Shown here piece by piece: positions 18,001-56,670 of a stretch of DNA of 64,000 bases; the first letter of the stretch is position 1; each line of letters starts with the position of its first letter. This stretch comes from Mobula hypostoma (Eukaryota): contig NC_086108.1 in the NCBI RefSeq assembly GCF_963921235.1, forward strand, positions 31,126,001 through 31,190,000, given 5' to 3'. Under the pieces are notes generated by a model. The model was not told the DNA's origin. It saw nothing but the letters and a program-made list of their open reading frames with translations, and searched no databases. The position numbers and the translations under genes are program-made.

Positions 18001-21000
18001 CCGGACCCCTCACATTCTCTCATATATCACCTCCAAGTTTCTCACGTTATCCCCCGGTCCCCCTCACCTGGTCTCATATATCACCTCCCAGTTTCTCACC
18101 TTATCCCCCATCCCCCTCACCTGGTCTCATATATCACCTCCCAGTTTCTCACGTTATCCCCCATTCCCCTCACCTGGTATCATATATCACCTCCCAGTTT
18201 CTCACCTTATCCCCCATCCCACTCTCCTGGTCTCATATATCACCTCCTAGTTTCTCAGGTTATCCCCGGACCCCTCACATTCTCTCATATATCACCTCCA
18301 AGTTTCTCACGTTATCCCCCGGTCCCCCTCACCTGGTCTCATATATCACCTCCCAGTTTCTCACCTTATTCCCGCATCCCCCTCACCTCGTCTCATATAT
18401 CACCTCCCAGTTTCTCACGTTATCCCCCGTCCCCCTCACCTGGTCTCAAAGATCACCTCCCAGTTTCTCACCTTATCCCCCATCCCCCTCGCCCGGTCTC
18501 ATATATCACATCCCAGTTTCTCACCTTTCCCCCATTCCCTTCACCTCGTCTCATATATCACTTCCCAGTTTCTCACGTTATTTCCCAACCCTCTCACCTG
18601 GTCTCATATATCACCTCCCAGTTTCACACCTTATTCCCCCATCCCCCTCACCTGGTCTCATACATCACGTCCCAGTTTCTCACGTTATCCCCCATCCCCG
18701 TCACCCGGTGTCATATATCACCTCCAAGTTTCTCACCTGATCCCCCATCCCCCTCACCTGGCCTCATATATATCCTCCCAGTTTCTCACCTTATCCCCCA
18801 TCCCCCTCACCTCATTTCATATATCACCTACCTGTTTCTCACGTTATCCCCCGTCCCCCTCACCTGGTCTCATATGTCACCTCCCAGTTTCTCACCTTAT
18901 CCCCCATTCCACTCACCTCGTCTCATATATCACCTCCCAGTTTCTCACGTTATCCCCCATCCCCCTCACCTGGTCTCATATATCACTTCACAGTTTCTCA
19001 CCCTATCTCCCATCCTTCTCACCCGGTCTCATATATCACCTCCCAGTTTCTCACGTTATCCCCCGTCCCGCTCAGCTGGTCTCATATATCACCTCCCAGT
19101 TTCTCACCTTATACCCCATCCCCCTCACCTTGTCTCATATATCACCTCCCGGTTTGTCACGTTATCCCCGATCCCCCTCTCCTGGTCTCATATATCACCT
19201 CCCAGTTTGTCACGTTATCCTCCATCCCACTCACCGGGTCTCAAATATCACCTCCCAGTTTCTCACGTTATCCCCCATCCCCTTCACCTGGTCTCATATA
19301 TCACCTCCCAGATCCTCATGTTATGTCCCATCCCCCTCACCTGGTCTCATATATCACCTCCCAGTTTCTCACCTTATCCCCCATCCACCTCACCTGGTCT
19401 CATAAATCACCTCCCGGTTTCTCACCTTATCCCCCATCCCCCTCACCTGCTCTCATCTATTACCTCCCGGTTTCTCACGTTATACCCCGTCCCCCTCACT
19501 CGGTCTCATATATCACCTCCCAGTTTCTCAAGTTATCCCCCATCCCCCTCACTCGGTATCATATATCACCTACCAGTTTCTCACCTTATCTCCCATCCCC
19601 CTCACCTCATCTCATATATCACTTCACAGTTTCTCATCTTATCCCCCATACACCTCACCCGGTCTCATATATCACCTCCCAGTTTCTCATGTTATCCCCC
19701 ATCCCCATCACCTGGTCTCAATTATCACTTCGCAGTTTCTCACCTTATCCACCATCCCCCTCACCCGGTCTCATATGTCACCGCCCTGTTTCTCACCTTA
19801 TCCCCCATCCCACTGACCTCGTTTCATATATCACTTCACAGTTTCTCACCTTATCCCTCATCCTCCTAACCCGGTCTCAACATCACCTCCCAGTTTCGCA
19901 CGTTATCCCCCGTCCCCCTCACCTGGTCTCATATATCACCTCCCAGTTTCTAACATTATCCCCCATCCCCCTCACCTGTTCTCATATATCACCTCCCAGT
20001 TTCTCACGTTATCCCCCGTCCCCCTCACCTGGTCTCATATATCACCTCTCACTTTCTCACGTTATCCCCCGTCCCCCTCACCTGGTCTCAAAGATCACCG
20101 CCCAGTTTCTCACCTTATCTCCCGTCCCCCTCGCCGGTCTCATATATTACCTCCCAGTTTCTCAGCTTTCCCCCATCCCCTTCACCTCGTCTCATATATC
20201 ACTCCCAGTTTCTCACGTTATCCCTTAACCCCCTCACCTGGTCTCATATATCACCTCCAAATTTCTCTCCTTATTCCCCCATCCCCCTCACCTGGTCTCA
20301 TATATCACCTCCCAGTTTCTCACGTTATCCCTCATCCCTCTCACCTGGTCTCATTTATCACCTCCCCGTTTCTGATTTTATCCCCCATCCCCCTCACCTC
20401 ATCTCATATATCACCTCCCAGTTTCTCCCGTTATCCCCCATCCCCCTCACCTGGTCTCATATATCACTTCCCGGTTTCTCACCTTATCCCCCATCCCCCT
20501 CACCCGGTCTCATAAATCACCTCCCAGTTTCTCACCTTATCCCCCATCCACCTCACATCGTCTCATATATCACTTCCCAGTTTCTCACGTTATCCCCCAT
20601 CCCCGTCACCCGGTATCATATATCACCTCCAAGTTTCTCACCTTATCCCCCATCGCCCTCACCTGGTCTCATGTATCACCTCCCACTTTCTCACCTTATC
20701 CCCCATCCCCCTCACCTCGTCTCATATATCACCACCCAGTTTCTCACGTTATCCCCCGTCCCGCTCACCTGGTCTCATATATCACCTCCCAGTTCCTCAC
20801 GTTATCCCCCATCCCCTTCACCTGGTCTCATATATCACCTCCCAGTTTCTCACCTTATCCCCCATCCCCCTCACCTGGTCTCATATATCACCTCCCGGTT
20901 TCTCACCTTATCCCCCATCCCCCTCACATCATCTCATATATCACTTCACATTTTCTCACCTTATCCCGCATCCCCCTCACCCGGTCTCATATATCACCTC

Positions 21001-23039
21001 CCAGTTTCTCACCTTATCCCCCATCCCCCTCACCTCGTCTCATATATCACTTACCAGTTGCTCACGTAAACCCCTTCCCCGTCACCTGGTCTCATATATC
21101 ACCCCCCGTTTCTCACGTTATCCCCCATCGCCCTGACCCGGTATCATAGATCACCTCCCAGTTGCTCAAGTTATCCCCTATCCTCCTCACCTGGTCTCAT
21201 ATATCACCTCCCAGTTTCTCACCTTATCCCCATCCCCTTCACCTCATCTCATGTATCACCTCCCAGTTTCTCAGCTTATCCACCATCCCCCTCACCTGGT
21301 CTCATATATCACCTCCCAGTTTCTCACGTTATCCCCCATCCCCCTCACCCCATCTCATATATCACCTCCCAGTTTATCACGTTATCCCTCATCCCACTCT
21401 CCTGGTCTCATATATCACCTCCCCGTTTCTCAGGTTTTCCCCCATCCCCCTCACCTGGTCTCATACATAACCTCCCAGTTTCTCACGTTATCCCCTATCC
21501 CCCTCACTCGGTCTCATATATCACCTACCTGTTTCTCACCTTATCTCCCATCCCCCTCACCTCATCTCATATATCACTTCACAGTTTCTCATCTTATCCC
21601 CCATACCCCTCACCCGGTCTCATATATCACCTCCCAGTTTCTCACGTTATCCCCCATCCCCATCACCTGGTCTCAATTATCACTTCGCTGTTTCTCACCT
21701 TATCCCCCATCCCCCTCACCCGGTCTCATATATCACCGCCCTGTTTCTCACCTTATCCCCCATCCCACTGACCTCGTTTCATATATCACTTCACAGTTTC
21801 TCACCTTATCCCTCATCCCCCTAACCCGGTCACATACATCACCTCCCAGTTTCTCACGTTATCCCCCGTCCCCCTCACCTGGTCTCATATATCACCTCCC
21901 AGTTTCTCACGTTATCCGCCGTCCCCCTCACCTGGTCTCATATATCACCTCTCACTTTCTCACGTTATCCCCCGTCCCCCTCACCTGGTCTCAAAGATCA
22001 CCTCCCAGTTTCTCACCTTATCTCCCGTCCCCCTCGCCCGGTCTCATATATTACCTCCCAATTTCTCACCTTTCCCCCATCCCCTTCACCTCGTCTCATA
22101 TATCACTTCCAGGTTTCTCACGTTATCCCTTAACCCCCTCACCTGGTCTCATATATCACCTCCAAATTTCTCTCCTTATTCTCCTATCCCCCTCACCTGG
22201 TCTCATATATCACCTCCCAGTTTCTCACGTTATCCCCCATTCCCCTCACCTGGTATCATATATCACCTCCCAGTTTCTCACCTTATCCCCCATCCCACTC
22301 TCCTGGTCTCATATATCACCTCCTAGTTTCTCAGGTTATCCCCGGACCCCTCACATTCTCTCATATATCACCTCCAAGTTTCTCACGTTATCCCCCGGTC
22401 CCCCTCACCTGGTCTCATATATCACCTCCCAGTTTCTCACCTTATTCCCGCATCCCCCTCACCTCGTCTCATATATCACCTCCCAGTTTCTCACGTTATC
22501 CCCCGTTCCCCTCACCTGGTCTCATATATCACCTCCCCGTTTCTCACGTTATCCCCCATCCCCCTCACCTGGTCTCACAGAGCACCTCCCAGTTTCAACC
22601 TTATCCACCATCCCCCTCGCCCGGTCTCATATATCACATCCCAGTTTCTCACCTTTCCCCCATCCCCTTCACCTCGTCTCATATATCACTTCCCAGTTTC
22701 TCACGTTATTTCCCAACCCCCTCACCTGGTCTCATATATCACCTCCCAGTTTCTCACCTTATTCCCCCATGCCCCTCACCTGGTCTCATACATCACGTCC
22801 CAGTTTCTCACGTTATCCCCCATCCCCGTCACCCGGTGTCATATATCACCTCCAAGTTTCTCACCTGATCCCCCATCCCCCTCACCTGGCCTCATATATA
22901 TCCTCCCAGTTTCTCACCTTATCCCCCATCCCCCTCACCTCATTTCATATATCACCTACCTGTTTCTCACTTTATCCCCCGTCCCCCTCACCTGGTCGCA
23001 TATGTCACCTCCCAGTTTCTCACCTTATCCCCCATTCCA
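1..23039 (+). repeat. 53-bp tandem satellite array, segment 1 (runs off the window start)
   Basis: TTATCCCCCATCCCCCTCACC..GTCTCATA.ATCACCTCCCAGTTTCTCAC recurs at positions 1, 54 and onward with a 53-bp period. Monomers carry a few substitutions each and occasional 1-bp indels, all head-to-tail in one orientation. Confidence 0.98.
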
Positions 23040-23040
23040 G

Positions 23041-23689
23041 CCGATTAGGAAAAGGGGAGGTGCAACGAGACCTGGGTGTTATTATACACCAGTCATTGAA
23101 AGTGGGCATGCAGGTACAGCAGGCGGTGAAAAAGGCGAACGGTATGCTGGCATTTATAGCGAGAGGATTCGAGTACAGGAGCAGGGAGGTACTACTGCAG
23201 TTGTACAAGGCCTTGGTGAGACCACACCTGGAGTATTGTGTGCAGTTTTGGTCCCCTAATCTGAGGAAAGACATCTTTGCCATAGAGGGAGTACAAAGAA
23301 GGTTCACCAGATTGATTCCTGGAATGGCAGGTCTTTCATATGAAGAAAGACTGGATGAACTGGGCTTGTACTCGTTGGAATTTAGAAGATTGAGGGGGGA
23401 TCTGATTGAAACGTATAAGATCCTAAAGGGATTGGACAGGCTAGATGTGGGAAGATTGTTCCCGATGTTGGGGAGGTCCAGAACGAGGGGTCACAGTTTG
23501 AGGATAGAGGGGAAGCCTTTTAGGACCGAGATTAGGAAAAACTTCTTCACACACAGGGTGGTGAATCTGTGGAATTCTCTGCCACAGGAAACTGTTGAGG
23601 CCAGTTCACTGGATATGTTTAAGAGGGAGTTAGATATGGCCCTTGTGGCTACAGGGGTCAGGGGGTATGGAGGGAAGGCTGGGTTCTGA
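23041..23689 (+). pseudogene. C-terminal fragment of CR1 ORF2 (region downstream of the RT core)
   Basis: Translates as RLGKGEVQRDLGVII...LYKALVRPHLEYCVQFWSP...VRGYGGKAGF*, nearly identical to the end of ORF 30987-33305. No endonuclease or FADD core. Confidence 0.9.
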
Positions 23690-23722
23690 GTTGGATGATC
23701 AGCCATGATCATAATAAATGGC

Positions 23723-23787
23723 GGTGCAGGCTCGAAGGGCCGAATGGCCTACTCCTGCACCTATTTTCTATGTTTCTATGTTTCTAT
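23723..23787 (+). other. CR1 3' terminal stem-loop and octamer microsatellite tail (truncated copy)
   Basis: GGTGCAGG (23723-23730) pairs with CCTGCACC (23754-23761), with an inner GGCC-GAAT-GGCC hairpin, followed by (TTTCTATG)2 TTTCTAT. A 3' hairpin plus short tandem tail is typical of CR1. Confidence 0.85.
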
Positions 23788-26700
23788 ATATCACCTCCCA
23801 GTTTCTCATGTAATCCCCCAACCTCCTCACCTGGTCTCATATATCACTTCACAGTTTCTTACCCCATCTCCCATCCTTCTCACCCGGTCTCATATATCAC
23901 CTCCCAGTTTCTCATCTTATCCTCCATCCCCCTCACCTGGTCTCATATATCACCTCCAAATTTCTCTCCTTATTCCCCCATCCCCCTCACCTGGTCTCAT
24001 ATATCACCTCCCAGTTTCTCACCTTATCCCCCATCCCCCTCACCTGTTCTCATATATCACCTCCTAGTTTCTCAGGTTATCCCCGGTCCCCCTCACATTC
24101 TCTCATATATCACCTCCAAGTTTCTCACGTTATCCCCGGTCCCCCTCACCTAGTCTCATATATCACCTCCCAGTTTCTCACCTTATTCCCGCATCCCCCT
24201 CACTTCGTCTCATATATCACCTCCCAGTTTCTCACGTTATCCCCCGTTCCCCTCACCTGGTCTCCTATATCACCTCCCAGTTTCTCACGTTAACTCCCAT
24301 CCCCCTCACCTGCTCTCATATATCACCTCCCCGTTTCTCACGTTATCCCCCATCCCCCTCACCCGGTCTCATATATCACATCCCAGTTTCTCACCTTTCC
24401 CCCATCCCCTTCACCTCGTCTCATATATCACTTCCCAGTTTCTCACGTTATTTCCCAACCCCCTCACCTGGTCTCATATATCACCTCCCAGTTTCTCACC
24501 TTATTCCCCCATGCCCCTCACCTGGTCTCATACATCACGTCCCAGTTTCTCACGTTATCCCCCATCCCCGTCACCCGGTGTCATATATCACCTCCAAGTT
24601 TCTCACCTGATCCCCCATCCCCCTCACCTGGCCTCATATATATCTTCCCAGTTTCTCACCTTATCCCCCATCCCCCTCACCTCATTTCATATATCACCTA
24701 CCTCTTTCTCACGTTATCCCCCGTCCCCCTCACCTGGTCTCATATGTCACCTCCCAGTTTCTCACCTTATCCCCCATTCCACTCACATCGTCTCATATAT
24801 CACCTCCCAGTTTCTCACGTTATCCCCCATCCCCCTCACCTGGTCTCATATATCACTTCACAGTTTCTCACCTTATCTCCCATCCTTCTCATCCGGTCTC
24901 ATATATCACCTCCCAGTTTCTCATCTTATCCTCCATCCCCCTCACCTGGTCTCATATATCACCTCCCAGTTTCTCAACTTATACCCCATCCCCCTCACCT
25001 CGTCTCATATGTCACCTCCCAGTTTCTCACGTTATCTCCCATCCCCCTGACCTGGTCTCATATATCACCTCCCAGTTTGTCACGTTATCCTCCATCCCAC
25101 TCACCGGGTCTCAAATATCTCCTCCCAATTTCTCACCTTATCCCCCATCCCCCTCACCTGGTCTCATATATCACCTCCCAGATCCTCATGTTATCTCCCA
25201 TCCCCCTCACCTGGTCTCATATATCACCTCCCAGTTTCTCACCTTATCCCCCATCCACCTCACCTGGTCTCATATATCACCTCCCGGTTTCTCACTTTAT
25301 CCCCCATCCCCCTCACCTGCTCTCATATATCACCTCCCGGTTTCTCACGTTATCCCCCATCCCCCTCACCTGGTCTCACAGAGCACCTCCCAGTTTCTCA
25401 CCTTATCCCCCATCCCCCTCGCCCGTTCTCATATATCACATCCCAGTTTCTCACCTTTCCCCCATCCCCTTCACCTCGTCTCATATATCACTTCACAGTT
25501 TCTCACGTTATCCCCCATCCCCCTCACTCGGTCTCATATATCACCTCCCAGTTTCTCACGTTATCCCCCATCCCCCTCACTCGGTCTCATATATCACCTA
25601 CCAGTTTCTCACTTATCTCCCATCCCCCTCACCTCATCTCATATATCACTTCACAGTTTCTCATCTTATCCCCCATACCCCTCACCCGGTCTCATATATC
25701 ACCTCCCAGTTTCTCACGTTATCCCCCATCCCCATCACCTGGTCTCAATTATCACTTCGCCGTTTCTCACCTTATCCCCCATCCCCCTCACCCGGTCTCA
25801 TATATCACCGCCCTGTTTCTCACCTTATCCCCCATCCCACTGACCTCGTTTCATATATCACTTCACAGTTTCTCACCTTATCCCTCATCCCCCTAACCCG
25901 GTCTCATACATCACCTCCCAGTTTCTCACGTTATCCGCCGTCCCCCTCACCTGGTCTCATATATCACCTCTCACTTTCTCACGTTATCCCCCGTCCCCCT
26001 CACCTGGTCTCAAAGATCACCTCCCAGTTTCTCACCTTATCTCCCGTCCCCCTCACCTGGTCTCATATATTACCTCCCAATTTCTCACCTTTCCCCCATC
26101 CCCTTCACCTCGTCTCATATATCACTTCCAGGTTTCTCACGTTATCCCTTATCCCCCTCACCTGGTCTCATATATCACCTCCAAATTTCTCTCCTTATTC
26201 TCCCATCCCCCTCACCTAGTCTCATATATCACCTCCCAGTTTCTCACGTTATCCCCCATTCCCCTCACCTGGTATCATATATCACCTCCCAGTTTCTCAC
26301 CTTATCCCCCATCCCACTCTCCTGGTCTCATAGATCACCTCCCAGTTTCTCACCTTATCCCCCATCTCCCTCACCTGTTCTCATATATCACCTCCTAGTT
26401 TCTCAGGTTATCCCCGGTCCCCCTCACATTCTCTCATATATCACCTCCCAGTTTCTCACGTTATCCCCCGTTCCCCTCATCTGGTCTCATATATCACCTC
26501 CCCGTTTCTCACGTTATCCCCCATCCCCCTCACCTGGTCTCACAGAGCACCTCCCAGTTTCTCACCTTATCCCCCATCCCCCTCGCCCGGTCTCATATAT
26601 CACATCCCAGTTTCTCACCTTTCCCCCATCCCCTTCACCTCGTCTCATATATCACTTCCCAGTTTCTCACGTTATTTCCCAACCCCCTCACCTGGTCTCA

Positions 26701-28663
26701 TATATCACCTCCCAGTTTCTCACGTTAACTCCCATCCCCCTCACCTGCTCTCATATATCACCTCCCCGTTTCTCACGTTATCCCCCATCCCCCTCACCTG
26801 GTCTCACAGAGCACCTCCCAGTTTCTCACCTTATCCCCCATCCCCCTCGCCCGGTCTCATATATCACATCCCAGTTTCTCACCTTTCCCCCATCCCCTTC
26901 ACCTCGTCTCATATATCTCTTCCCAGTTTCTCACGTTATTTCCCAACCCCCTCACCTGGTCTCATATATCACCTCCCAGTTTCTCACCTTATTCCCCCAT
27001 GCCATTCACCTGGTCTCATACATCACGTCCCAGTTTCTCACGTTATCCCCCATCCCCATCACCCGGTGTCATATATCACCTCCAAGTTTCTCACCTGATC
27101 CCCCATCCCCCTCACCTGGCCTCATATATATCCTCCCAGTTTCTCACCTTATCCCCCATCCCCCTCACCTCATTTCATATATCACCTACCTGTTTCTCAC
27201 GTTATCCCCCGTCCCCCTCACCTGTTCTCATATGTCACCTCCCAGTTTCTCACCTTATCCCCCATTCCACTCACCTCATCTCATATATCACCTCCCAGTT
27301 TCTCACGTTATCCCCCATCCCCCTCACCTGGTCTCATATATCACTTCACAGTTTCTCACCCTATCTCCCATCCTTCTCACCCGGTCTCATATATCACCTC
27401 CCAGTTTCTCATCTTATCCTCCATCCCCCTCACCTGGTCTCATATATCACCTCCCAGTTTCTCACCTTATACCCCATCCCCCTCACCTCGTCTCCTATAT
27501 CACCTCCCAGTTTCTCACGTTATCTCCCATCCCCCTGACCTGGTCTCATATATCACCTCCCAATTTCTCACCTTATCCCCCATCCTCCTCACCTGGTCTC
27601 ATATATCACCTCCCAGATCCTCATGTTATCTCCCATCCCCCTCACCTGGTCTCATATATCACCTCCCAGTTTCTCACCTTATCCCCCATCCACCTCACCT
27701 GGTCTCATATATCACCTCCCGGTTTCTCACTTTATCCCCCATCCCCCTCACCTGCTCTCATATATCACCTCCCGGTTTCTCACGTTATACCCCGTCCCCC
27801 TCACTCGGTCTCATATATCACCTCCCAGTTTTTCACGTTATCCCCCATCCCCCTCACTCGGTCTCATATATCACCTACCAGTTTCTCACCTTATCTCCCA
27901 TCCCCCTCACCTCATCTCATATATCACTTCACAGTTTCTCATCTTATCCCCCATACCCCTCACCCGGTCTCATATATCACCGCCCTGTTTCTCACCTTAT
28001 CCCCCATCCCACTGACCTCGTTTCATATATCACTTCACAGTTTCTCACCTTATCCCTCATCCCCCTAACCCGGTCTCATACATCACCTCCCAGTTTCTCA
28101 CGTTATCCCCCGTCCCCCTCACCTGGTCTCATATATCACCTCCCAGTTTCTAACATTATCCCCCATCCCCCTCACCTGTTCTCATATATCACCTCCCAGT
28201 TTCTCACGTTATCCCCCGTCCCCCTCACCTGGTCTCAAAGATCACCTCCCAGTTTCTCACCTTATCTCCCGTCCCCCTCGCCCGGTCTCATATATTACCT
28301 CCCAGTTTCTCACCTTTCCCCCATCCCCTTCACCTCGTCTCATATATCACTTCCAGGTTTCTCACGTTATCCCTTAACCCCCTCACCTGGTCTCATATAT
28401 CACCTCCAAATTTCTCTCCTTATTCTCCCATCCCCCTCACCTGGTCTCATATATCACCTCCCAGTTTCTCACGTTATCCCCCAGTCCCCTCACCTGGTAT
28501 CATATATCACCTCCCAGTTTCTCACCTTATCCCCCATCCCACTCTCCTGGTCTCATAGATCACCTCCCAGTTTCTCACCTTATTCCCGCATCCCCCTCAC
28601 CTCGTCTCATATATCACCTCCCAGTTTCTCACGTTATCCCTCGTTCCCCTCACCTGGTCTCAT
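23788..28663 (+). repeat. 53-bp tandem satellite array, segment 2 (between the two LINEs)
   Basis: Same monomer and orientation. Resumes at ATATCACCTCCC and ends at ...CACCTGGTCTCAT. Confidence 0.98.
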
Positions 28664-28676
28664 ATTTAAAAGGCAG

Positions 28677-29192
28677 ATTTAAATGGGCAGACATCCTGCT
28701 TCGGATTTGATTCGAAGAAGGAGTCTGAGAGTCTGAGTGGGAGTGCCGAGAAAGAGATTTTTGAAATTTTCGTTATTTTTTTTTTCTCCAACGGCTTTCT
28801 GAGAGGCGGGACTGCGCAGGCGTGTGACGTCGGGCAGTGCAGCGCGGCAGATTTAAAAGGGCAGACATCCTGCTTCGGATTTGATTCGCAGAAGGAGTCT
28901 GAGAGTCTGAGTGGGAGTGCCGAGAAAGAGATTTTTGAAATTTTCGTTATTTTTTTTTCTCCAACGGCTTTCTGAGAGGCGGGACTGCGCAGGCGTGTGA
29001 CGTCGGGCAGTGCAGCGCGGCAGATTTAAAAGGGCAGACATCCTGCTTCGGATTTGATTCGGAGTCTGAGAGTCTGAGTGGGAGTGCCAAGAAAGAGATT
29101 CTTGAAATTTTCGTTATTTTTTTTTTTCTCCAACGGCTTTCTGAGAGGCGGGACTGCGCAGGCGTGTGACGTCGGGCACTGCAGCGCGGCAG
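28677..29192 (+). repeat. Three tandem ~170-bp monomers in the LINE 5' UTR (28677-28850, 28851-29023, 29024-29192)
   Basis: Each starts ATTTAAA[A/T]GGGCAGACATCCTGCTTCGG and ends ...GCAGCGCGGCAG. Lengths are 174/173/169 bp, differing by T-tract length (10/9/11) and a 6-bp deletion in unit 3. A fourth ATTTAAAAGG begins at 29193 and then diverges. Confidence 0.95.
28803..28858 (+). promoter_or_regulatory. Putative Pol II promoter module (GC box, NRF1-like, CRE-like, TATA-like), repeated at ~28976-29031 and ~29145-29200
   Basis: GAGGCGGGAC (28803-28812), TGCGCAGGCGTG (28813-28824), TGACGTCG (28825-28832) and ATTTAAAA (28851-28858), in canonical upstream-to-TATA order and CpG-rich. Motif resemblance only. 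Confidence 0.55.
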
Positions 29193-29364
29193 ATTTAAAA
29201 GGAACAGAGCCTCATAGAGCGGGCAGCGTAGTTTGCGGGCTGCGGAGTGAGCCGGGAGCAGAGTGAAGACTTAAGGGCTTTGGCTCAACGGGCTTAGGCG
29301 GAAGCGGGCGAGGCGAGGAAGGTTTGACATTCATTTTCTGTTGCTATTTGAGGAGAGGGGCATT

Positions 29365-30300
29365 ATGACTGTGAGGGCAGTTTGCTGTTCTCGGTGTCGG
29401 ATGTGGGAGGCCCAGGAGTCTCCAAGCCTCCCGGACGTCTACATCTGCGCCAAGTGCATCGAGATGCAGCTCCTAAGGGACCGCGTTACGGAACTGGAGC
29501 TGCAGCTCGATGACCTTCATCTGGTCAGGGAGAGCGAGGAGGTGATAGAGAGGAGTGGAAGGCAGGTGGTCACGCCGGGGCCACGGGAGGCAGACAAGTG
29601 GGTCACGGTTAGGAGGGGGAAGGGGAAAAGGCAGGTGATGGGGAGTACCCTGGTGGCTGTGCCCCTTAACAACAGGTACTCCTGTTTGAGTACTGTTGGA
29701 GGGGACAGCTTACCCGGGGGAAGCGACAGTGGCCCTGCCTCCGGCACAGAGTCTGGCCCTGTAGCTCAGAAGGGTAGGGCAAGGAAGAGGAGGGCAGTTG
29801 TGATAGGGGACTCGATAGTAAGGGGGTCAGATAGGCGATTCTGTGGACGCAGTCCAGAGACTCGGATGGTAGTTTTTCTCCCTGGTGCCAGGGTCCGGGA
29901 TATTTCTGATCGTGTCCAAGATATCCTGAAGTGGGAGGGTGAAGAGCCAGAGGTCCTGGTACATATAGGTACCAATGACATAGGTAGGAAAAGGGATGAG
30001 GTCCTGAAAGAAGAATATAGGGAGCTAGGAAGGGAGTTGAGAAAAAGGACCGCAAAGGTAGTAATCTCGGGATTACTGCCTGTGCCACGCGACAGTGAGA
30101 GTAGGAATGCGATGAGGTGGAGGATAAATGCGTGGCTGAGGGATTGGAGCAGGGGGCAGGGATTCAAGTTTTTGGATCATTGGGACCTCTATTGGTGCAG
30201 GCGTGACCTGTACAAAAAGGACGGGTTACACTTAAATCCTAGGGGGACCAATATCCTGGCAGGGAGATTAGCGGGGGCTACTGTGGTGACTTTAAACTAG
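29365..30300 (+). CDS. CR1 ORF1 protein, 311 aa: N-terminal Cx2C-x16-Cx2C zinc finger and leucine zipper, C-terminal SGNH/GDSL esterase domain
   Basis: First ATG is at 29365 (the track starts at an upstream TTG). CSRC...CAKC, heptad LRDRVTELELQLDDL, and SGNH blocks IGDS, PGA, HIGTND and DGLH are all intact. This architecture is established for vertebrate CR1 ORF1. Confidence 0.9.
   Translation: MTVRAVCCSRCRMWEAQESPSLPDVYICAKCIEMQLLRDRVTELELQLDDLHLVRESEEVIERSGRQVVTPGPREADKWVTVRRGKGKRQVMGSTLVAVPLNNRYSCLSTVGGDSLPGGSDSGPASGTESGPVAQKGRARKRRAVVIGDSIVRGSDRRFCGRSPETRMVVFLPGARVRDISDRVQDILKWEGEEPEVLVHIGTNDIGRKRDEVLKEEYRELGRELRKRTAKVVISGLLPVPRDSESRNAMRWRINAWLRDWSRGQGFKFLDHWDLYWCRRDLYKKDGLHLNPRGTNILAGRLAGATVVTLN
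30291..30297 (+). other. Candidate -1 programmed ribosomal frameshift slippery site (T_TTA_AAC)
   Basis: ORF1 ends ACT TTA AAC TAG, so the heptamer is in X_XXY_YYZ phase. The -1 frame (TTT AAA CTA GAA TGG TTG...) is the ORF2 frame, open from 30243. Confidence 0.65.
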
Positions 30301-33300
30301 AATGGTTGGGGGGTGGGAATCAAATTAAAGAGGCTAGGTGTGAGGAGGTTAGTTCACAACAGAGGGATGGGGACCAGTGCAGAGAGACAGAGGGGTGTAA
30401 AGTGAGCGTAGAAGCAAAAAGTACAAAGGGGAAAAGTAAAAGTGGCAGGCCGACAAATCCAGGGCAAGCATTAAAAAGGGCTAAGAGAGTTGTAAAAGAG
30501 CGCCTGAAGGCTTTATGTGTCAATGCAAGGAGCATTCGTAATAAGGTGGATGAATTGAAAGTGCAGATTGTTATTAATGATTATGATATAGTTGGGATCA
30601 CAGAGACATGGCTCCAGGGTGACCAGGGATGGGAGCTCAACGTTCAGGGATATTCAATATTCAGGAGGGATAGACATGAAGGAAGGGGAGGTGGGGTGGC
30701 GTTGCTGGTTTAAAAAGAGATTAACGCAATAGAAAGGAAGGACATAAGCCGGGAAGATGTGGAATCGATATGGGTAGAGCTGCGTAACACTAAGGGGCAG
30801 AAGACGCTGGTGGGAGTTGTGTACAGGCCACCTAATAGTAGTAGTGAGGTCGGAGATGGTATTAAACAGGAAATTAGAAATGTGTGCAATAAAGGAACAG
30901 CAGTTATAATGGGTGACTTCAATCTACATGTAGATTGGGTGAACCAAATTGGTAAAGGTGCTGAGGAAGAGGATTTCTTGTAATGTATGCGGGATGGTTT
31001 TTTGAACCAACATGTCGAGGAACCGACTAGAGAGCAGGCTATTCTGGACTGGGTTTTGAGCAATGAGGAAGGGTTAATTAGCGATCTTGTTGTGAGAGGC
31101 CCCTTGGGTAAGAGTGACCATAATATGGTGGAATTCTTCATTAACATGGAGAGTGACATAGTTAATTCAGAAACAAAGGTTCTGAACTTAAAGAGGGGTA
31201 ACTTTGAAGGTATGAGTCGTGAATTAGCTAAGATAGACTGGCAAATGACACTTAAAGGATTGACGGTGGATATGCAATGGCAGGCATTTAAAGGTTGCAT
31301 GGATGAACTACAACAATTGTTCATCCCAGTTTGGCAAAAGAATAAATCAAGGAAGGTAGTGCACCCGTGGCTGACAAGAGAAATTAGGGATAGTATCAAT
31401 TCCAAAGAAGTAGCATACAAATTAGCCAGAGAAAGTGGCTCACCTGAGGACTGGGAGAAATTCAGAGTTCAGCAGAGGAGGACAAAGGGCTTAATTAGGA
31501 AGGGGAAAAAAGATTATGAGAGAAAACTGGCAGAGAACATAAAAACGGACTGTAAAAGCTTTTATAGATATGTAAAAAGGAAAAGACTGATAAAGACAAA
31601 TGTAGGTCCCCTGCAGACAGAAACAGGTGAATTGATTATGGGGAGCAAGGACATGGCAGACCAATTGAATAATTATTTTGGTTCTGTCTTCACTAAGGAG
31701 GACATAAATAATCTTCCAGAAATAGTAAGGGACAGAGGGTCCAGTGAGATGGAGGAACTGAGTGAAATACATGTTAGTAGGGAAGTGGTGTTAGGTAAAT
31801 TGAAGGGATTGAAGGCAGATAAATCCCCAGGGCCAGATGGTCTGCATCCCAGAGTGCTTAAGGAAGTAGCCCAAGAAATAGTGGATGCATTAGTGATAAT
31901 TTTTCAAAACTCGTTAGATTCTGGACTAGTTCCTGAGGATTGGAGGGTGGCTAATGTAACCCCACTTTTTAAAAAAGGAGGGAGAGAGAAACCGGGGAAT
32001 TATAGGCCCGTCAGCCTAACGTCGGTGGTGGGGAAACTGCTGGAGTCAGTTATCAAGGATGTGATAACAGCACATTTGGAAAGCGGTGAAATGATCGGAC
32101 AAAGTCAGCATGGATTTGTGAAAGGAAAATCATGTCTGACGAATCTCATAGAATTTTTTGAGGATGTAACTAGTAGAGTGGATAGGGGAGAACCAGTGGA
32201 TGTGGTATATTTGGATTTTCAAAAGGCTTTTGACAAGGTCCCACACAGGAGATTAGTGTGCAAACTTAAAGCACACGGTATTGGGGGTAAGGTATTGGTG
32301 TGGGTGGAGAATTGGTTAGCAGACAGGAAGCAAAGAGTGGGAATAAACGGGACCTTTTCAGAATGGCAGGCGGTGACTAGTGGGGTACCGCAAGGCTCAG
32401 TGCTGGGACCCCAGTTGTTTACAATATATATTAATGACTTGGATGAGGGAATTAAATGCAGCATCTCCAAGTTTGCGGATGACACGAAGCTGGGTGGCAG
32501 TGTTAGCAGTGAGGAGGATGCTAAGAGGATGCAGGGTGACTTGGATAGGTTGGGTGAGTGGGCAAACTCATGGCAGATGCAATTTAATGTGGATAAATGT
32601 GAAGTTATCCACTTTGGTGGCAAAAATAGGAAAACAGATTATTATCTGAATGGTGGCCGATTAGGAAAAGGGGAGGTGCAACGAGACCTGGGTGTCATTA
32701 TACACCAGTCATTGAAAGTGGGCATGCAGGTACAGCAGGCGGTGAAAAAGGCGAACGGTATGCTGGCATTTATAGCGAGAGGATTCGAGTACAGGAGCAG
32801 GGGGGTACTACTGCAGTTGTACAAGGCCTTGGTGAGACCGCACCTGGAGTATTGTGTGCAGTTTTGGTCCCCTAATCTGAGGAAAGACATCTTTGCCATA
32901 GAGGGAGTACAAAGAAGGTTCACCAGATTGATTCCTGGGATGGCAGGTCTTTCATATGAAGAAAGACTGGATGAACTGGGCTTGCACTCGTTGGAATTTA
33001 GAAGATTGAGGGGGGATCTGATTGAAACGTATAAGATCCTAAAGGGATTGGACAGGCTAGATGCGGGAAGATTGTTCCCGATGTTGGGGAGGTCCAGAAC
33101 GAGGGGTCACAGTTTGAGGATAGAGGGGAAGCCTTTTAGGACCGAGATTAGGAAAAACTTCTTCACACAGAGAGTGGTGAGTCTGTGGAATTCTCTGCCA
33201 CAGCAAACTGTTGAGGCCAGTTCATTAGCTATGTTTAAAAGGAAGTTAGATATGGCCCTTGTGGCTACAGGGGTCAGGGGGTATGGAGGGAAGGCTGGGT

Positions 33301-33305
33301 TCTGA
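30291..33305 (+). pseudogene. CR1 ORF2 (APE endonuclease + reverse transcriptase), ~1000 codons, interrupted by two in-frame TAA stops (30711-30713, 30981-30983)
   Basis: Track ORFs 30306-30713, 30759-30983 and 30987-33305 share one frame. EN motifs: VNARS, ITETW, YRPP, GDFN, ILD, SDH. RT motifs: YRPVSLTS, QHGF, YLDFQKAFDKV, GVPQGSVLGP, KFADD. No frameshifting indels. Confidence 0.93.
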
Positions 33306-33338
33306 GTTGGATGATCAGCCATGATCATAATAAATGGT

Positions 33339-33403
33339 GGTGCAGGCTCGAAGGGCCGAATAGCCTACTCCTGCACCTATTTTCTATGTTTCTATGTTTC
33401 TAT
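33339..33403 (+). other. CR1 3' terminal stem-loop and octamer microsatellite tail (full-length copy)
   Basis: GGTGCAGG (33339-33346) pairs with CCTGCACC (33370-33377). Tail is TTTCTATG 33381-33388, TTTCTATG 33389-33396, TTTCTAT 33397-33403. Confidence 0.85.
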
Positions 33404-36400
33404 ATATCACCTCCCCGTTTCTCACGTTATCCCCCATCCCCCTCACCTGGTCTCAAAGATCACCTCCCAGTTTCTCACCTTATCTCCCGTCCCCCTCGCC
33501 CGGTCTCATATATTACCTCCCAGTTTCTCACCTTTCCCCCATCCCCTTCACCTCGTCTCATATATCACTTCCAGGTTTCTCACGTTATCCCTTAACCCCC
33601 TCACCTGGTCTCATATATCACCTCCAAATTTCTCTCCTTATTCTCCCAACCCCCTCACCTGGTCTCATATATCACCTCCCAGTTTCTCAAGTTATCCCCC
33701 ATTCCCCTCACCTGGTATCATATATCACCTCCCAGTTTCTCACCTTATCCCCCATCCCCCTCACCTGTTCTCATATATCACCTCCTAGTTTCTCAGGTTA
33801 TCCCCGGTCCCCCTCACATTGTCTCATATATCACCTCCCAGTTTCTCACCTTATTCCCGCATCCCCCTCACCTCGTCTCATATATCACCTCCCAGTTTCT
33901 CACGTTATCCCCCGTTCCCCTCACCTGGTCTCATATATCACCTCCCAGTTTCTCACGTTAACTCCCATCCCCCTCACCTGCTCTCATATATCACCTCCCC
34001 GTTTCTCTCGTTATCCCCCATCCCCCTCACCTGGTCTCACAGAGCACCTCCCAGTTTCTCACCTTATCCCCCATCCCCCTCGCCCGGTCTCATATATCAC
34101 ATCCCAGTTTCTCACCTTTCCCCCATCCCCTTCACCTCGTCTCATATATCACTTCCCAGTTTCTCACGTTATTTGCCAACCCCCTCAACTGGTCTCATAT
34201 ATCACCTCCCAGTTTCTCACCTTATTCCCCCATGCCCCTCACCTGGTCTCATACATCACGTCCCAGTTTCTCACGTTATCCCCCATCCCCCTCACCTGGC
34301 CTCATATATATCCTCCCAGTTTCTCACCTTACCCCCATCCCCCTCACCTCATTTCATATATCACCTACCTGTTTCTCACGTTATCCCCCGTCCCCCTCAC
34401 CTGGTCTCATATGTCACCTCCCAGTTTCTCACCTTATCCCCCATTCCACTCACCTCGTCTCATATATCACCTCCCAGTTTCTCACGTTATCCCCCAACCT
34501 CCTCACCTGGTCTCATATATCACTTCACAGTTTCTCACCCTATCTCCCATCCTTCTCACCCGGTCTCATATATCACCTCCCAGTTTCTCATCTTATCCTC
34601 CATGCCCCTCACCTGGTCTCATATATCACCTCCCAGTTTCTCACCTTATACCCCATCCCCCTCACCTCGTCTCATATATCACCTCCCAGTTTCTCACGTT
34701 ATCTCCCATCCCCCTCACCTGGTCTCATATATCACCTCCCGGTTTGTCACGTTATCCTCCATCACCCTCACCTGGTCTCATATATCACCTCCCGGTTTCT
34801 CACCTTATCCCCCATCCCCCTCACCTGCTCTCATATATCACCTCCCGGTTTCTCACGTTATACCCCGTCCCTCTCACTCGGTCTCATATATCCCCTCCCA
34901 GTTTCTCACGTTATCCCCCATCCCCCTCACTCGGTCTCATATATCACCTACCAGTTTCTCACCTTATCTCCCATCCCCCTCACCTCATCTCATATATCAC
35001 TTCACAGTTTCTCACCCTATCTCCCATCCTTCTCACCCGGTCTCATATATCACCTCCCAGTTTCTCATCTTATCCTCCATGCCCCTCACCTGGTCTCATA
35101 TATCACCTCCCAGTTTCTCACCTTATACCCCATCCCCCTCACCTCGTCTCATATATCACCTCCCAGTTTCTCACGTTATCTCCCATCCCCCTCACCTGGT
35201 CTCATATATCACCTCCCGGTTTGTCACGTTATCCTCCATCACCCTCACCTGGTCTCATATAACACCTCCCGGTTTCTCACCTTATCCCCCATCCCCCTCA
35301 CCTGCTCTCATATATCACCTCCCGGTTTCTCACGTTATACCCCGTCCCTCTCACTCGGTCTCATATATCCCCTCCCAGTTTCTCACGTTATCCCCCATCC
35401 CCCTCACTCGGTCTCATATATCACCTACCAGTTTCTCACCTTATCTCCCATCCCCCTCACCTCATCTCATATATCACTTCACAGTTTCTCATCTTAGCCC
35501 CCATACCCCTCACCCAGTCTCATATATCACCTCCCAGTTTCTCACGTTATCCCCCATCCCCATCACCTGGTCTGAATTATTACTTTGCAGTTTCTCACCT
35601 TATCCCCCATCCCCCTCACCCGATCTCATATATCACCGCCCTGTTTCTCACCTTATCCCCCATCCCACTGACCTCGTTTCATATATCACTTCACAGTTTC
35701 TCACCTTATCCCTCATCCCCCTAACCCGGTCTCATACATCACCTCCCAGTTTCTCACGTTATCCCCCGTCCCCCTCACCTGGTCTCATATATCACCTCCC
35801 AGTTTCTAACATTATCCCCCATCCCCCTCACCTGTTCTCATATATCACCTCCCAGTTTCAAACGTTATCCCCCGTCCCCCTCACCTGGTCTTATATATCA
35901 CCTCTCACTTTCTCACGTTATCTCCCGTCCCCCTCCCCTGGTCTCATATATCACCTCCCGGTTTCTCACCTTATCCCCCATCCCCATCACCCCGTCTCAT
36001 ATATCACTTCACAGTTTCTCACCTTATCCCCCATCCCCCTCACCCGGTCTCTAATATCACCTCCCAGTTTCTCACCTTATCCTCCATCCCCCTCACCTCG
36101 TCTCATAAAACACTTCCCAGTTTCTCAAGTTATCCCCCATCCCCGTCACCCGGTCTCATATATCACCTCCAAGTTTCTCACCTTATCCCCCATCGCCCTC
36201 ACCTGGTCTCATGTATCACCTCCCAGTTTCTCACCTTATCCCCCATCCCCCTCACCTCGTCTCATATATCACCACCCAGTTTCTTATGTTATCCCCCGTC
36301 CCGCTCACCTGGTCTCATTTATCACCTCCCAGTTCCTCACATTATCCCCCATCCCCCTCACCTGGTCTCATATATCACCTCCCTGTTTCTCACCTTATCC

Positions 36401-39400
36401 CCCATCCCCCTCACCCGGTCTCCTATATCACCGCCCTGTTTCTCAACTTATCCCCCATCCCACTGACCTCGTTTCATATATCACTTCACAGTTTCTCACC
36501 TTATCCCTCATCCCCCTAACCCGGTCTCATACATCACCTCCCAGTTTCTCACGTTATCCCCCATCCCCCTCACTCGGTCTCATATATCACCTACCAGTTT
36601 CTCACCTTATCCCCCATCCCCCTCACCTCATCTCATATATCACTTCACAGTTTCTCATCTTATCCCCCATACCCCTCACCCGGTCTCATATATCACCTCC
36701 CAGTTTCTCACGTTATCCCCCATCCCCATCACCTGGTCTCAATTATCACTTCACAGTTTCTCACCTTATCCCTCATCCCCCTAACCCGGTCTCATACATC
36801 ACCTCCCAGTTTCTCACGTTATCCCCCGTCCCCCTCGCCTGGTCTCATATATCACCTCCCAGTTTCTCACGTTATCCCCCATCCCCTTCACCTGGTCTCA
36901 ATTATCACTTCACAGTTTCTCACCTTATCCCCCATCACCCTCACCTAGTCTCAAAGATCACCTCCCAGTTTCTCACCTTATCTCCCGTCCCCCTCGCCCG
37001 GTCTCATATATTACCTCCCAGTTTCTCACCTTTCCCCCATCCCCTTCACCTCGTCTCATATATCGCTTCCAGGTTCCTCACGTTATCCCTTAACCCCCTC
37101 ACCTGGTCTCATATATCACCTCCAAATTTCTCTCCTTATTCTCCCATTCCCCTCACCTGGTCTCATATATCACCTCCCAGTTTCTCAAGTTATCCCCCAT
37201 TCCCCTCACCTGGTATCATATATCACCTCCCAGATTCTCACCTTATCCCCCATCCCACTGTCCTGGTCTCATAGATTACCTCCCAGTTTCTCACCTTATC
37301 CCCCATCCCCCTCACCTGTTCTCATATATCACCTCCTAGTTTCTCAGGTTATCCCCGGTCCCCCTCACATTGTCTCATATATCACCTCCAAGTTTCTCAC
37401 GTTATCCCCGGTCCCCCTCACCTGGTCTCATATATCACCTCCCAGTTTCTCACCTTATTCCCTCATCCCCCTCACCTCGTCTCATATATCACCTCCCAGA
37501 TTCTCACGTTATCCCCCGTTCCCCTCTCCTGGTCTCATATATCACCTCCCCGTTTCTCACGTTATCCCCCATCCCCTCACCTGGTCTCACAGAGCACCTC
37601 CCAGTTTCTCACCTTATCCCCCATCCCCCTCGCCCGGTCTCATATATCACATCCCAGTTTCTCACCTTTCCCCCATCCCCTTCACCTCGTCTCATATATC
37701 ACTTCCCAGTTTCTCACGTTATTTCACAACACCCTCAACTGGTCTCATATATCACCTCCCAGTTTCTCACCTTATTCCCCCATGCCCCTCACCTGGTCTC
37801 ATACATCACGTCCCAGTTTCTCACGTTATCCCCCATCCCCGTCACCCGGTGTCATATATCACCTCCAAGTTTCTCACCTGATCCCCCATCCCCCTCACCT
37901 GGCCTCATATATATCCTCCCAGTTTCTCACCTTATCCCCCATCCCCCTCACCTCATTTCATATATCACCTACCTGTTTCTCACGTTATCCCCCATCCCCC
38001 TCACCTGGTCTCATATGTCACCTCCCAGTTTCTCACCTTATCCCCCATTCCACTCACCTCGTCTCATATATCACCTCCCAGTTTCTCACGTTATCCTCCA
38101 ACCTCCTCACCTGGTCTCATATATCACTTCACAGTTTCTCACCCTATCTCCCATCCTTCTCACCCGGTCTCATATATCACCTCCCAGTTTCTCATCTTAT
38201 CTTCCATCCCCCTCACCTGGTCTCATATATCACCTCCCAGTTTCTCACCTTATACCCCATCCCCCTCACCTCGTCTCATATATCACCTCCCAGTTTCTCA
38301 CGTTATCTCCCATCCCCCTCACCTGGTCTCATATATCACCTCCCAGTTTGTCACGTTATCCTCCATCCCACTCACCGGGTCTCATATATCACCTCCCAAT
38401 TTCTCACCTTATCCCCCATCCCCCTCACCTGGTCTCATATATCACCTCCCAGATCCTCATGTTATATCGCATCCCCCTCACCTGGTCTCATATATCACCT
38501 CCCAGTTTCTCACCATATCCCCCATCCACCTCACCTGGTCTCATATATCACCTCCCGGTTTCTCACCTTATCCCCCATCCCCCTCACCTACTCTCATATA
38601 TCACCTCCCGGTTTCTCACGTTATACCCCGTCCCTCTCACTCGGTCTCATATATCACCTCCCAGTTTCTCACGTTATCCACCATCCCCCTCACTCGGTCT
38701 CATATATCACCTACCAGTTTCTCACCTTATCTCCCATCCCCCTCACCTCATCTCATATATCACTTCACAGTTTCTCATATTATCCCCCATACCCCTCACC
38801 CGGTCTCATATATCACCTCCCAGTTTCTCATGTTATCCCCCATCCCCATCACCTGGTCTGAATTATTACTTTGCAGTTTCTCACCTTATCCCCCATTCCC
38901 CTCACCCGATCTCATATATCACCGCCCTGTTTCTCACCTTATCCCCTATCCCACTGACCTCGTTTCATATATCACTTCACAGTTTCTCACCTTCTCCCTC
39001 ATCCCCCTAACCCGGTCTCATACATCACCTCCCAGTTTCTCACGTTATCCCCCGTCCCCCTCACCTGGTCTCATATATCACCTCCCAGTTTCTAACATTA
39101 TCCCCCATCCCCCTCACCTGTTCTCATATATCACCTCCCAGTTTCAAACGTTATCCCCCATCCCCCTCACCTGGTCTCATATATCACCTCTCACTTTCTC
39201 ACGTTATCTCCCGTCCCCCTCCCCTGGTCTCATATATCACCTCCCGGTTTCTCACCTTATCCCCCATCCCCATCACCCCGTCTCATATATCACTTCACAG
39301 TTTCTCACCTTATCCCCCATCCCCCTCACCCGGTCTCTAATATCACCTCCCAGTTTCTCAACTTATCCTCCATCCCCCTCACCTCGTCTCATAAAACACT

Positions 39401-56000: not shown

Positions 56001-56670
56001 ACCTGGTCTCATATATCACTTCCCGGTTTCTCACCTTATCCCCCATCCCCCTCACCCGGTCTCATAAATCACCTCCAAGTTTCTAACCTTATCCCCCATC
56101 GCCCTCACCTGGTCTCTTGTATCACCTCCCACATTCTCACCTTATCCCCCATCCCCCTCACCTCGTCTCATATATCACCACCCAGTTTCTCACGTTATCC
56201 CCCGTCCCGCTCACCTGGTCTCATATATCACCTCCCAGTTCCTCACGTTATCCCCCACCCCCTCACCTGGTCTCATATATCACCTCCCAGTTTCTCACCT
56301 TATCCCCCATCCCCCTCACCTGGTCTGATATATCACCTCCCAGTTTCTCACCTTATCCCCCATCCCCCTCACCTCAACTCATATATCACTTCACAGTTTC
56401 TCACCTTATCCCGCATCCCCCTCACCCGATCTCATATATCACCTCCCAGTTTCTCACCTTATCCCCCATCCCCCTCACCTCGTCTCATATATCACTTAGC
56501 AGTTGCTCACGTTATCCCCCATCCCCGTCACCTGGTCTTATATATCACCTCCCCATTTCTCATGTTATCCCCCATCGCCCTGACCTGGTATCATATATCA
56601 CCTCCCAGTTGCTCAAGTTATCCCCTATCCCCCTCACCCCGTCTCATATATCACCTCCCAGTTTCTCACC
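44160..56670 (+). repeat. Near-identical 6244-bp tandem duplication (~118 monomers)
   Basis: Matching spurious ORFs at 45074/51318, 45958/52202, 46540/52784, 47596/53840, 48989/55233 and 49873/56117 (offset 6244). Boundaries are approximate. Confidence 0.88.

Follow-up and report, generated by a model that had tools for sequence, protein, structure and literature searches.

Two separate CR1 insertions share one position of a 53-bp satellite monomer in Mobula hypostoma

Two CR1 copies inside a satellite array of Mobula hypostoma were found to be separate insertion events that share one 3' junction, one strand and one tail length. Each is probably an ordinary target-primed insertion, made independently of the other by a dispersed batoid CR1 family of high copy number with a weak local bias, and the shared spot most likely reflects an A/T patch together with a mild site taste, not targeting of the satellite. 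The sequence analysed, referred to as the window, was the forward strand of NC_086108.1:31,126,001-31,190,000 from assembly GCF_963921235.1 (64,000 nt). It consisted of a 53-bp C-rich satellite array (1..64000, + strand, 1105 monomers). The monomers showed a mean divergence of 7.5% from the consensus, and the higher-order structure was shuffled in this 64-kb window, with roughly one register switch for every 12 monomers (33 clusters among 384). Each monomer contained one ATATAT patch, spanning positions 50-53 and 1-2, which was the sole pure A/T 6-mer of the repeat. The only non-satellite blocks were the two CR1 copies, leaving 58.5 kb of array; the block search returned three segments, two of which were parts of the long copy. 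Both satellite insertions in the window (2/2, n=2) occupied the same monomer position.

The long copy (28666..33403, + strand, 4.7 kb) was full-length and inactive. Its 5' UTR (28672..29202, +) was built of 3.1 tandem 173-bp units with 96% matches. ORF1 (29365..30300, +) encoded a GDSL/SGNH esterase domain (PF13472, E 2.7e-16), with two CxxC pairs close to the N-terminus and no gag CCHC knuckle. The ORF2 frame (30291..33305, +), at -1 to ORF1, encoded an APE endonuclease and a reverse transcriptase (PF00078, E 7.2e-34) and was interrupted by two in-frame stops. The endonuclease was recognized weakly, on broken pieces, by Pfam PF03372/PF14529, and its profile matched L1-EN structures (5e-08) in a match that left out the hairpin; the endonuclease piece alone, without the profile, matched no solved structure. 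By motif count and by-eye alignment, this hairpin appeared about 6 residues shorter than that of L1. The short copy (23040..23787, + strand) was a 748-bp, 5'-truncated element comprising the end of ORF2, the 3' UTR and the tail.

By its anatomy the element is of CR1 type and not of the site-specific R1/Tx1 type. ORF2 carried an APE endonuclease followed by a reverse transcriptase, ORF1 carried an esterase domain without gag knuckles, and the tail contained two units of 8 bp plus 7 letters with no poly(A). An esterase-type ORF1 is a mark of CR1/L2-type elements, and R1 and Tx1 characteristically carry CCHC knuckles, both in ORF1 and at the ORF2 C-terminus; among the three protein sequences examined, no such knuckle was found in either place. 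Among the LINEs of sharks, rays, reptiles and birds, CR1 predominates. The best protein matches were batoid (75-91%; Mobula, Leucoraja and Hypanus), followed by bird and turtle (45-55%), and none of them carried a CR1 label. The 3' end motif of the element had 0 matches in viral contigs and 0 in metagenome contigs, and its protein had no relative among viral contigs. The 3' ends of CR1 elements have been described as 2-4 units of 8 bp (PMC2817409).

The shared junction reported in the initial annotation was reproduced to the base: both copies lay on the + strand and ended in CTATTTTCTATGTTTCTATGTTTCTAT followed directly by ATATCACCTCCC (junctions 23787/23788 and 33403/33404). The tails (23765..23787 and 33381..33403, both +), described there as equal in length, were identical, each made of two full 8-bp units and 7 letters, (TTTCTATG)x2 + TTTCTAT, and the unit occurred nowhere else in the window on either strand. 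The position of the junction is ambiguous because the tail's final AT belongs to the target as well, and a nick before monomer position 50, 51 or 52 yields the same string. In the long copy, this 2-bp 3' microhomology lay at 33402-33403. Pairing of the tail end TTTCTAT with the target GTCTCAT had also been proposed, but the letters agree at only 3 of 7 positions and the true overlap is 2 bp (AT). In target-primed reverse transcription, pairing is possible only with sequence downstream of the nick. The longest tail match in the monomer was GTTTCT (6 bp, positions 12-17), which neither insertion used; tail pairing as the sole cause was rejected because it would predict insertion at GTTTCT.

The left ends of the two copies were not alike. 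The left flank of the short copy (23004..23039, +) was a monomer cut at position 36; 13-15 bp of target were lost and 5' microhomology was absent. The long copy was bounded by ATAT at 28662..28665 (+; its last AT may be element sequence) and at 33402..33405 (+; satellite contigs begin matching at 33402). These form a candidate 4-bp target duplication, whose length is 0-4 bp with the final AT being possibly element-derived. At 4 bp it agrees with the peak of 3-5 bp reported for target duplications of L2 and CR1 (PMC4245944), a report in conflict with the statement in PMC2817409 that CR1 makes no target duplication.

The two copies are separate insertion events, as had been suggested from their flanks and their divergence. 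Their sequences differed at 17 of 748 aligned bases, matching the earlier estimate of about 2.3%, and the flanks lay in different higher-order contexts. The differences were clustered, with 9 of the 17 falling within 74 bp (23554..23627, +, equal to 33170-33243 in the long copy; P=0.0005), and in this cluster the states of both copies recurred in other CR1 proteins. Synonymous differences numbered 7 of 15 against 4.8 expected, an excess that was not significant (P=0.16). Of the empty-site equivalents named earlier, that of the short copy was well supported (34413..34571, +; further equivalents at 38017 and 41304), while that of the long copy (22421..22560, +) fitted only partially, namely the left flank and the start of the first right-hand monomer. 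This first monomer (33406..33458, +) was a hybrid: its start fitted the left-flank context, and midway it switched to the context of 28188 onward, so that its end and the next monomers repeated the context of 28188-28452. Its type was found once among the 11 monomers with that tail-end signature. Identical CR1 junctions inside a repeat need not imply common descent.

Most copies of the CR1 family cannot lie in the satellite. Reads came from 4 of 24 sequencing runs (X1, X4, X5 and X21); X21, from a distant species, gave 14 reads, all less than 90% alike, and nothing usable. Loose ends at 33403, a class that includes longer tails and cannot contain flanks starting with A, amounted to at least 118, at least 123 and at least 90 contigs, with consensus agreement of 0.33, 0.33 and 0.35 among those listed. 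As a reference, 118 random flanks gave 0.31-0.33; the loose-end agreement was thus at the random level, and most copies were not flanked by one target sequence. The summed depth of the first satellite bin was 4.4% (X1), 3.1% (X4) and 0.05% (X5) of that of the last tail bin. The depth of the 3' UTR was 16-22 times that of the satellite in organism A and 215 times in organism B (summed depths, not copy numbers), and by these ratios, which are not per-Mb enrichments, the family was not strongly enriched in the satellite. The ideas of a landing pad and of a sequence-specific CR1 found no support: the 3' ends ran mostly into unrelated flanks, and at most about 3-4% of the tail depth continued in phase into satellite, much of it in pure satellite contigs. 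An extra tail-to-satellite joint, 33398 to 33441, appeared in runs X1 and X4 with a different tail end and maybe another phase. This joint was weighed neither for nor against any reading: it could be a variant of the short copy, the flank of which likewise starts matching at 33441, or a third insertion, either at position 36 or with intervening letters that went unseen.

Alignment-based scans for relatives returned distant ones only, with 80 of 194 metagenome loci and 80 of 97 genome loci kept. A distant CR1-like family served as proxy; it came from a single genome, which supplied 38 of the 80 kept genome loci and 45 more besides, and the metagenome loci were unused. Its 91 candidate 3' ends were reduced to 73 by removing duplicates, to 55 by removing palindrome artefacts and to 49 for flank counts. 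This family was only about 45% identical in protein to the window element and had a different tail. Its tails were stereotyped, 12% of pairs sharing a tail length and 25% a register (55 junctions), and its flanks started weakly with A-W-T (A at +1 in 29/49, A/T at +2 in 37/49). An A followed a terminal T in 22 of 37 cases against 14.4 expected (P=0.009). No logo could be derived from the target duplications, which in the 29 copies having a 5' end were too short and too noisy. Among coelacanth CR1 duplications, 45 of 64 letters were A/T and 10 of 13 contained TA or AT, with no obvious specificity described there (PMC4255032). The distant family and the literature suggest a similar bias in the window family, and the attraction to ATATAT proposed in the initial annotation agrees with the standing of this patch in the monomer.

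In the preferred reading, two ordinary insertions with a weak bias, the ATATAT patch would be nicked on the G-rich strand by the APE endonuclease, in the simplest case at TCTC^ATAT as read on the top strand; we infer the exact nick and the order of the steps. The freed 3' end would pair by two bases with the AU of the RNA tail end and prime reverse transcription; a 3' overlap of one to several bp has been described for CR1, L2 and RTE (PMC6007223). The ATAT duplication of the long copy would stem from another nick, about 4 bp farther downstream. In the short copy, synthesis would halt after 748 bases, and the left end would lose 13 bp before blunt joining; short truncations made up 6 of 30 ZfL2-1 inserts in HeLa (PMC4245944). 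The family bias would be weak and local, consisting of an A/T start, a TpA step and 1-3 bp of pairing to an almost invariant RNA end. Since the C-rich monomer has few such sites, most of them in the ATATAT patch, it would then be fairly likely for one phase to be hit more than once.

The chance of 1/106 given earlier for the same phase and strand was about right under a uniform model (1 in 92 with the junction ambiguity), but uniform is the wrong null. Capped weak models gave a shared-phase chance of 1 in 25 to 1 in 79, and 1 in 6 to 1 in 10 was obtained if the tail end was stereotyped, a setting that presupposes what both window copies show. All 18 models favoured some other phase: the observed one ranked between 5 and 17, with a probability of 0.01-0.08, and was outscored by the opposite strand and by adjoining phases within the patch. 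Plain coincidence, in which two unbiased random hits with the same phase, strand and common tail length were noticed after scanning many windows, is unlikely. With n=2 and a uniform chance of about 1 in 92, it gains from the random look of the flanks at 33403 among the contigs listed and from the 33398-33441 joint in X1 and X4, which has another tail end and perhaps another phase. However, that joint is ambiguous, the monomer has no pure A/T 6-mer besides the shared site, and the related family has a bias towards T before and A after the junction.

It is also quite unlikely that the short copy acquired its 3' junction by copying, whether through a conversion tract that overwrote the original junction or through repair of an array break by one-sided invasion beside another in-array CR1, with 748 bases copied and blunt joining. 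Such copying would account for the same phase, strand and tail and for the 13-15 bp loss. It is favoured by the lack of a duplication beside that loss, by the 53 bp across the junction that are identical in both copies, and by the frequent register switches of the array. However, a tract between the two copies could span at most 53 bp, since the long copy is marked on both sides of the junction, by a private A (family G) 41 bp upstream and by its own context base 12 bp downstream. By arithmetic, a divergence of 2.3% would leave 53 bases identical in about 3 of 10 cases, and the clustered differences speak against the long copy as body donor; a donor elsewhere in the array is conceivable. A sharp hotspot, in which nicking by the family or by one of its young subfamilies is confined to a single base and strand of the satellite, appears improbable as well. 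It could arise from endonuclease read-out of the pyrimidine-flanked ATATAT, from rotational phasing (53 bp being five helical turns) or from the nicks of another element. Both copies used the same base though adjacent phases pair equally or longer. Against this stand the small in-phase share of tail depth (at most 3-4%, much of it pure satellite contigs), the 58.5 kb of array with no other non-satellite block, and an endonuclease hairpin apparently about 6 residues shorter than that of L1. In addition, R1 and Tx1 are the only APE clades named with site-specific members in the available text of PMC6007223. The broader proposal that the satellite serves as a thousand-fold replicated natural nicking assay, revealing a CR1 single-base, single-strand hotspot at TCTC^ATAT that the shape of the DNA or the phasing of nucleosomes on the 53-bp unit would determine, is doubtful. 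If true, the hotspot would define where a CR1 endonuclease prefers to cut and would be a CR1 counterpart of L1 satellite hotspots.

In alphoid DNA, L1 reportedly inserted repeatedly at the same base of the repeated target (Laurent et al. 1997). In the literature searched, which covered few subscription journals, no report of phased CR1 insertions in a satellite was found. The target bias of CR1 has so far been loosely described; a tandem array offers many identical targets, and a full insertion table would measure this bias directly. The window supplies two data points compatible with ordinary LINE behaviour. A similar case is L1-CS in the CUS-TR24 satellite of Cuscuta europaea, where independent LINE insertions recur at preferred monomer positions with an endonuclease-like site; there, however, 91% of 97,860 elements adjoin the satellite with duplications of 13-16 bp (PMC8091179), whereas here the share is a few percent at most and n=2. 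In human repeated targets, elements without strict specificity also strike the same base repeatedly, and 654 of 799 insertion types depart from the expected spread. Those hotspots involve L1/Alu, LTR and DNA elements, and for CR1 as the inserting element the available text of PMC2836564 contained no comparable table. Site-specific LINEs of the R1/Tx1 clades (Waldo, Mino, Kibi, Koshi) enter a repeated target at a constant base and on a constant strand (PMC3812793, PMC6007223), whereas the window element is dispersed, has CR1 anatomy and lacks CCHC knuckles. The vertebrate CR1 elements of chicken and coelacanth and its batoid relatives resemble it in the esterase ORF1, the APE-RT ORF2, the 8-bp tail units, the 5' truncation, the short or absent target duplication, the short 3' overlap and the dispersed distribution (PMC2817409, PMC4255032, PMC4245944). 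It differs from them in having two copies at one phase of a tandem target and in its tail unit, which is TTTCTATG instead of ATTCTRTG.

The window was occupied by a single 53-bp satellite array of 1105 monomers, which was interrupted by two blocks, both of them CR1-type LINEs. The long copy (28666-33403, + strand) was a full-length LINE. Its 5' UTR (28672-29202) contained 3.1 tandem 173-bp units (96% match), which resembled the monomer-based promoters of certain other LINEs, and its 5' end (28664-28690) opened with a near-duplication of about 14 bases of part of this unit, perhaps from a template slip at the 5' junction. ORF1 carried a GDSL esterase domain, and the ORF2 frame, with two in-frame stops, contained the endonuclease and reverse transcriptase. 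ORF1 ended with T TTA AAC TAG (30291-30300), in which T TTA AAC, presumably a slippery heptamer, stood in phase just before the stop, and the -1 frame was open into the endonuclease without a methionine; these two features suggest that a -1 frameshift may join ORF1 and ORF2. The short copy (23040-23787, + strand) belonged to the same family, of which it retained the final 748 bp. The best named protein matches were from rays and skates, with identity up to 91%, which makes a batoid the most probable host. The placement of the element in CR1 was made by its anatomy.

Both copies lay on the + strand and passed from the tail into ATATCACCTCCC, and each 3' end consisted of two 8-bp units and seven letters, which confirmed the common junction, orientation and tail length reported in the initial annotation. 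The final AT of the tail doubled as target sequence, and satellite contigs aligned at the junction started to match at 33402, two bases within the tail. Because AT was common to tail and target, the nick could be placed only to within monomer positions 50-52. With a nick at position 50 assumed, the long copy was flanked by a candidate 4-bp ATAT duplication, in agreement with the peak at 3-5 bp stated for L2 and CR1 in an excerpt of PMC4245944, unlike the corresponding excerpt of PMC2817409, in which CR1 has no target duplication. At the short copy, 13 bp of target were gone (15 with AT taken as tail), and the joint had no microhomology.

The two insertions were independent, as had been proposed, since monomer typing placed the copies in different higher-order contexts and their differences were clustered. 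The reported divergence of about 2.3% corresponded to 17 of 748 bases, nine of which fell within 74 bp, a clustering improbable under an even spread (P=0.0005). In this cluster, residues S and K in the long copy and D in the short copy recurred in other CR1 proteins, and the clustering together with the recurring residues points to two putative source elements; the synonymous excess alone (7/15, P=0.16) was not significant. Empty sites had been described for both copies. Those of the short copy were found (34413, 38017 and 41304 were close), whereas none was complete in the window for the long copy, because its right flank began as the left flank predicts and then switched register inside the first monomer. 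Copying of one 3' junction by gene conversion, which was named at the outset as a competing case, would also give a common phase, but any tract between these two copies was limited to at most 53 bp, and this minor rival is quite improbable.

As a proxy for junction bias, a CR1-like family of about 45% protein identity in genome G001 was used (69 motif matches). Among 55 junctions, tail length was equal in 12% of pairs and register in 25%; of 49 clean junctions, the flank began with A in 29 and had A/T as the second letter in 37, and A followed a terminal T in 22/37 (expected 14.4, P=0.009). Several proxy copies lay within microsatellites, either (AT)n or of other kinds (L108, L137, L161, L105). 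G001 is filed as bacterial, and the at least 69 3' ends of this animal-type LINE on many contigs (L088 and others, L161-L205) are heavy host contamination. In coelacanth CR1 duplications, 45 of 64 letters were A/T, with no obvious specificity according to an extract of PMC4255032.

All 106 sites of the monomer were scored under 18 models. Under the uniform model, two insertions would share a phase with a probability of 1 in 92, near the 1/106 originally estimated, which did not survive in the biased models (up to 1 in 6). When flank bias was the sole bias, the probability was 1 in 61. Capped pairing, whether or not flank bias was added, gave 1 in 25 to 1 in 79, and a tail end stereotyped as in both copies gave 1 in 6 to 1 in 10, with more than half of the weight then falling within the ATATAT patch; uncapped pairing gave 1 in 6 to 1 in 7 but predicted GTTTCT. 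The shared junction is a real, tidy coincidence, and its best explanation is probably an ordinary, weak bias that met a monomer containing one A/T patch. Counting against this explanation, the phase used by both copies came 5th to 17th in all the models, and thus the exact base was predicted by none of the 18; of the preference claimed for the ATATAT patch, a weak bias toward the patch is rather likely. Chance alone, to which the uniform value applies, is an unlikely explanation. Elements that lack strict specificity commonly show single-position hotspots in repeated targets, as a portion of PMC2836564 states. A sharp hotspot here is distinctly unlikely.

The proposed pairing of the tail TTTCTAT with the target GTCTCAT was not upheld, as only 3/7 letters matched and the RNA cannot pair with target letters on the upstream side of the nick. 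Tail and target actually overlapped by 2 bp, which lies in the range of one to several bp given for CR1, L2 and RTE in part of PMC6007223. Longer tail matches were left unused (6-bp at monomer positions 12-17 and 3-bp at adjacent phases), so the nick site seems to be set more by the endonuclease than by pairing. In L1, a hairpin loop senses the flexibility of the DNA, on which the choice of target depends (PMC1950540, in extract). In an alignment made by eye alone, the loop here looked about 6 residues shorter than that of L1, which would fit low selectivity. Both insertions require a nick in the - strand of the monomer, which was rich in G and contained two five-G runs. The 53-bp length corresponds to about five helical turns, and either feature could bias strand or phase.

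Contigs of 4 sequencing runs (24 listed) were aligned on 33230-33510, including 22,127 and 21,233 contigs of the best-matching organism. Among the matches listed, and without flanks starting with A, 118 (X1) and 123 (X4) contigs of organism A and 90 (X5) of organism B left at the exact tail end. Their flank consensus agreement was 0.33-0.35, against 0.31-0.33 among 118 random flanks, and their A/T-rich plurality consensus was also expected by chance. This random-level agreement shows the dispersal of the family and says nothing on local bias. The depth of the first satellite bin relative to the last tail bin was at most 4.4% (X1), 3.1% (X4) and 0.05% (X5), pure satellite contigs included. The idea of the satellite as a landing pad was not supported: in Cuscuta, 91% of a family with a true satellite landing pad lies beside the satellite (PMC8091179, in extract), whereas the flanks here were dispersed. 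Site-specific APE LINEs comprise R1 and Tx1 only, as far as the relevant part of PMC6007223 states, and the window contained no satellite-targeting Tx1 element. The literature searched gave no account of CR1 insertions that share a phase within a satellite. One contig each in X1 and X4 joined the tail at 33398 to the satellite at 33441, the only tail-to-satellite joint among the matches listed, which would fit either a third insertion whose tail end differs or a variant form of the short copy. At 33430-33480, organism B (X5) matched part of the 53-bp monomer only, so this second species carries a diverged satellite relative, and the CR1 family is common to both.

Register switches formed 33 clusters among the 384 monomers between 16 and 42 kb, roughly one for every 12 monomers, by a criterion that did not flag the switch next to the long copy. 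Directly 3' of that copy (33406-33670), the array switched and repeated the monomers of 28188-28452, which places the long copy within what looks like a local duplication spanning about nine monomers. Near-identical multi-kb blocks recurred at 42000-59500, with ORF and repeat patterns spaced about 3.9 and 2.3 kb apart, which would reflect either a recent amplification inside the array or an effect of the assembly.
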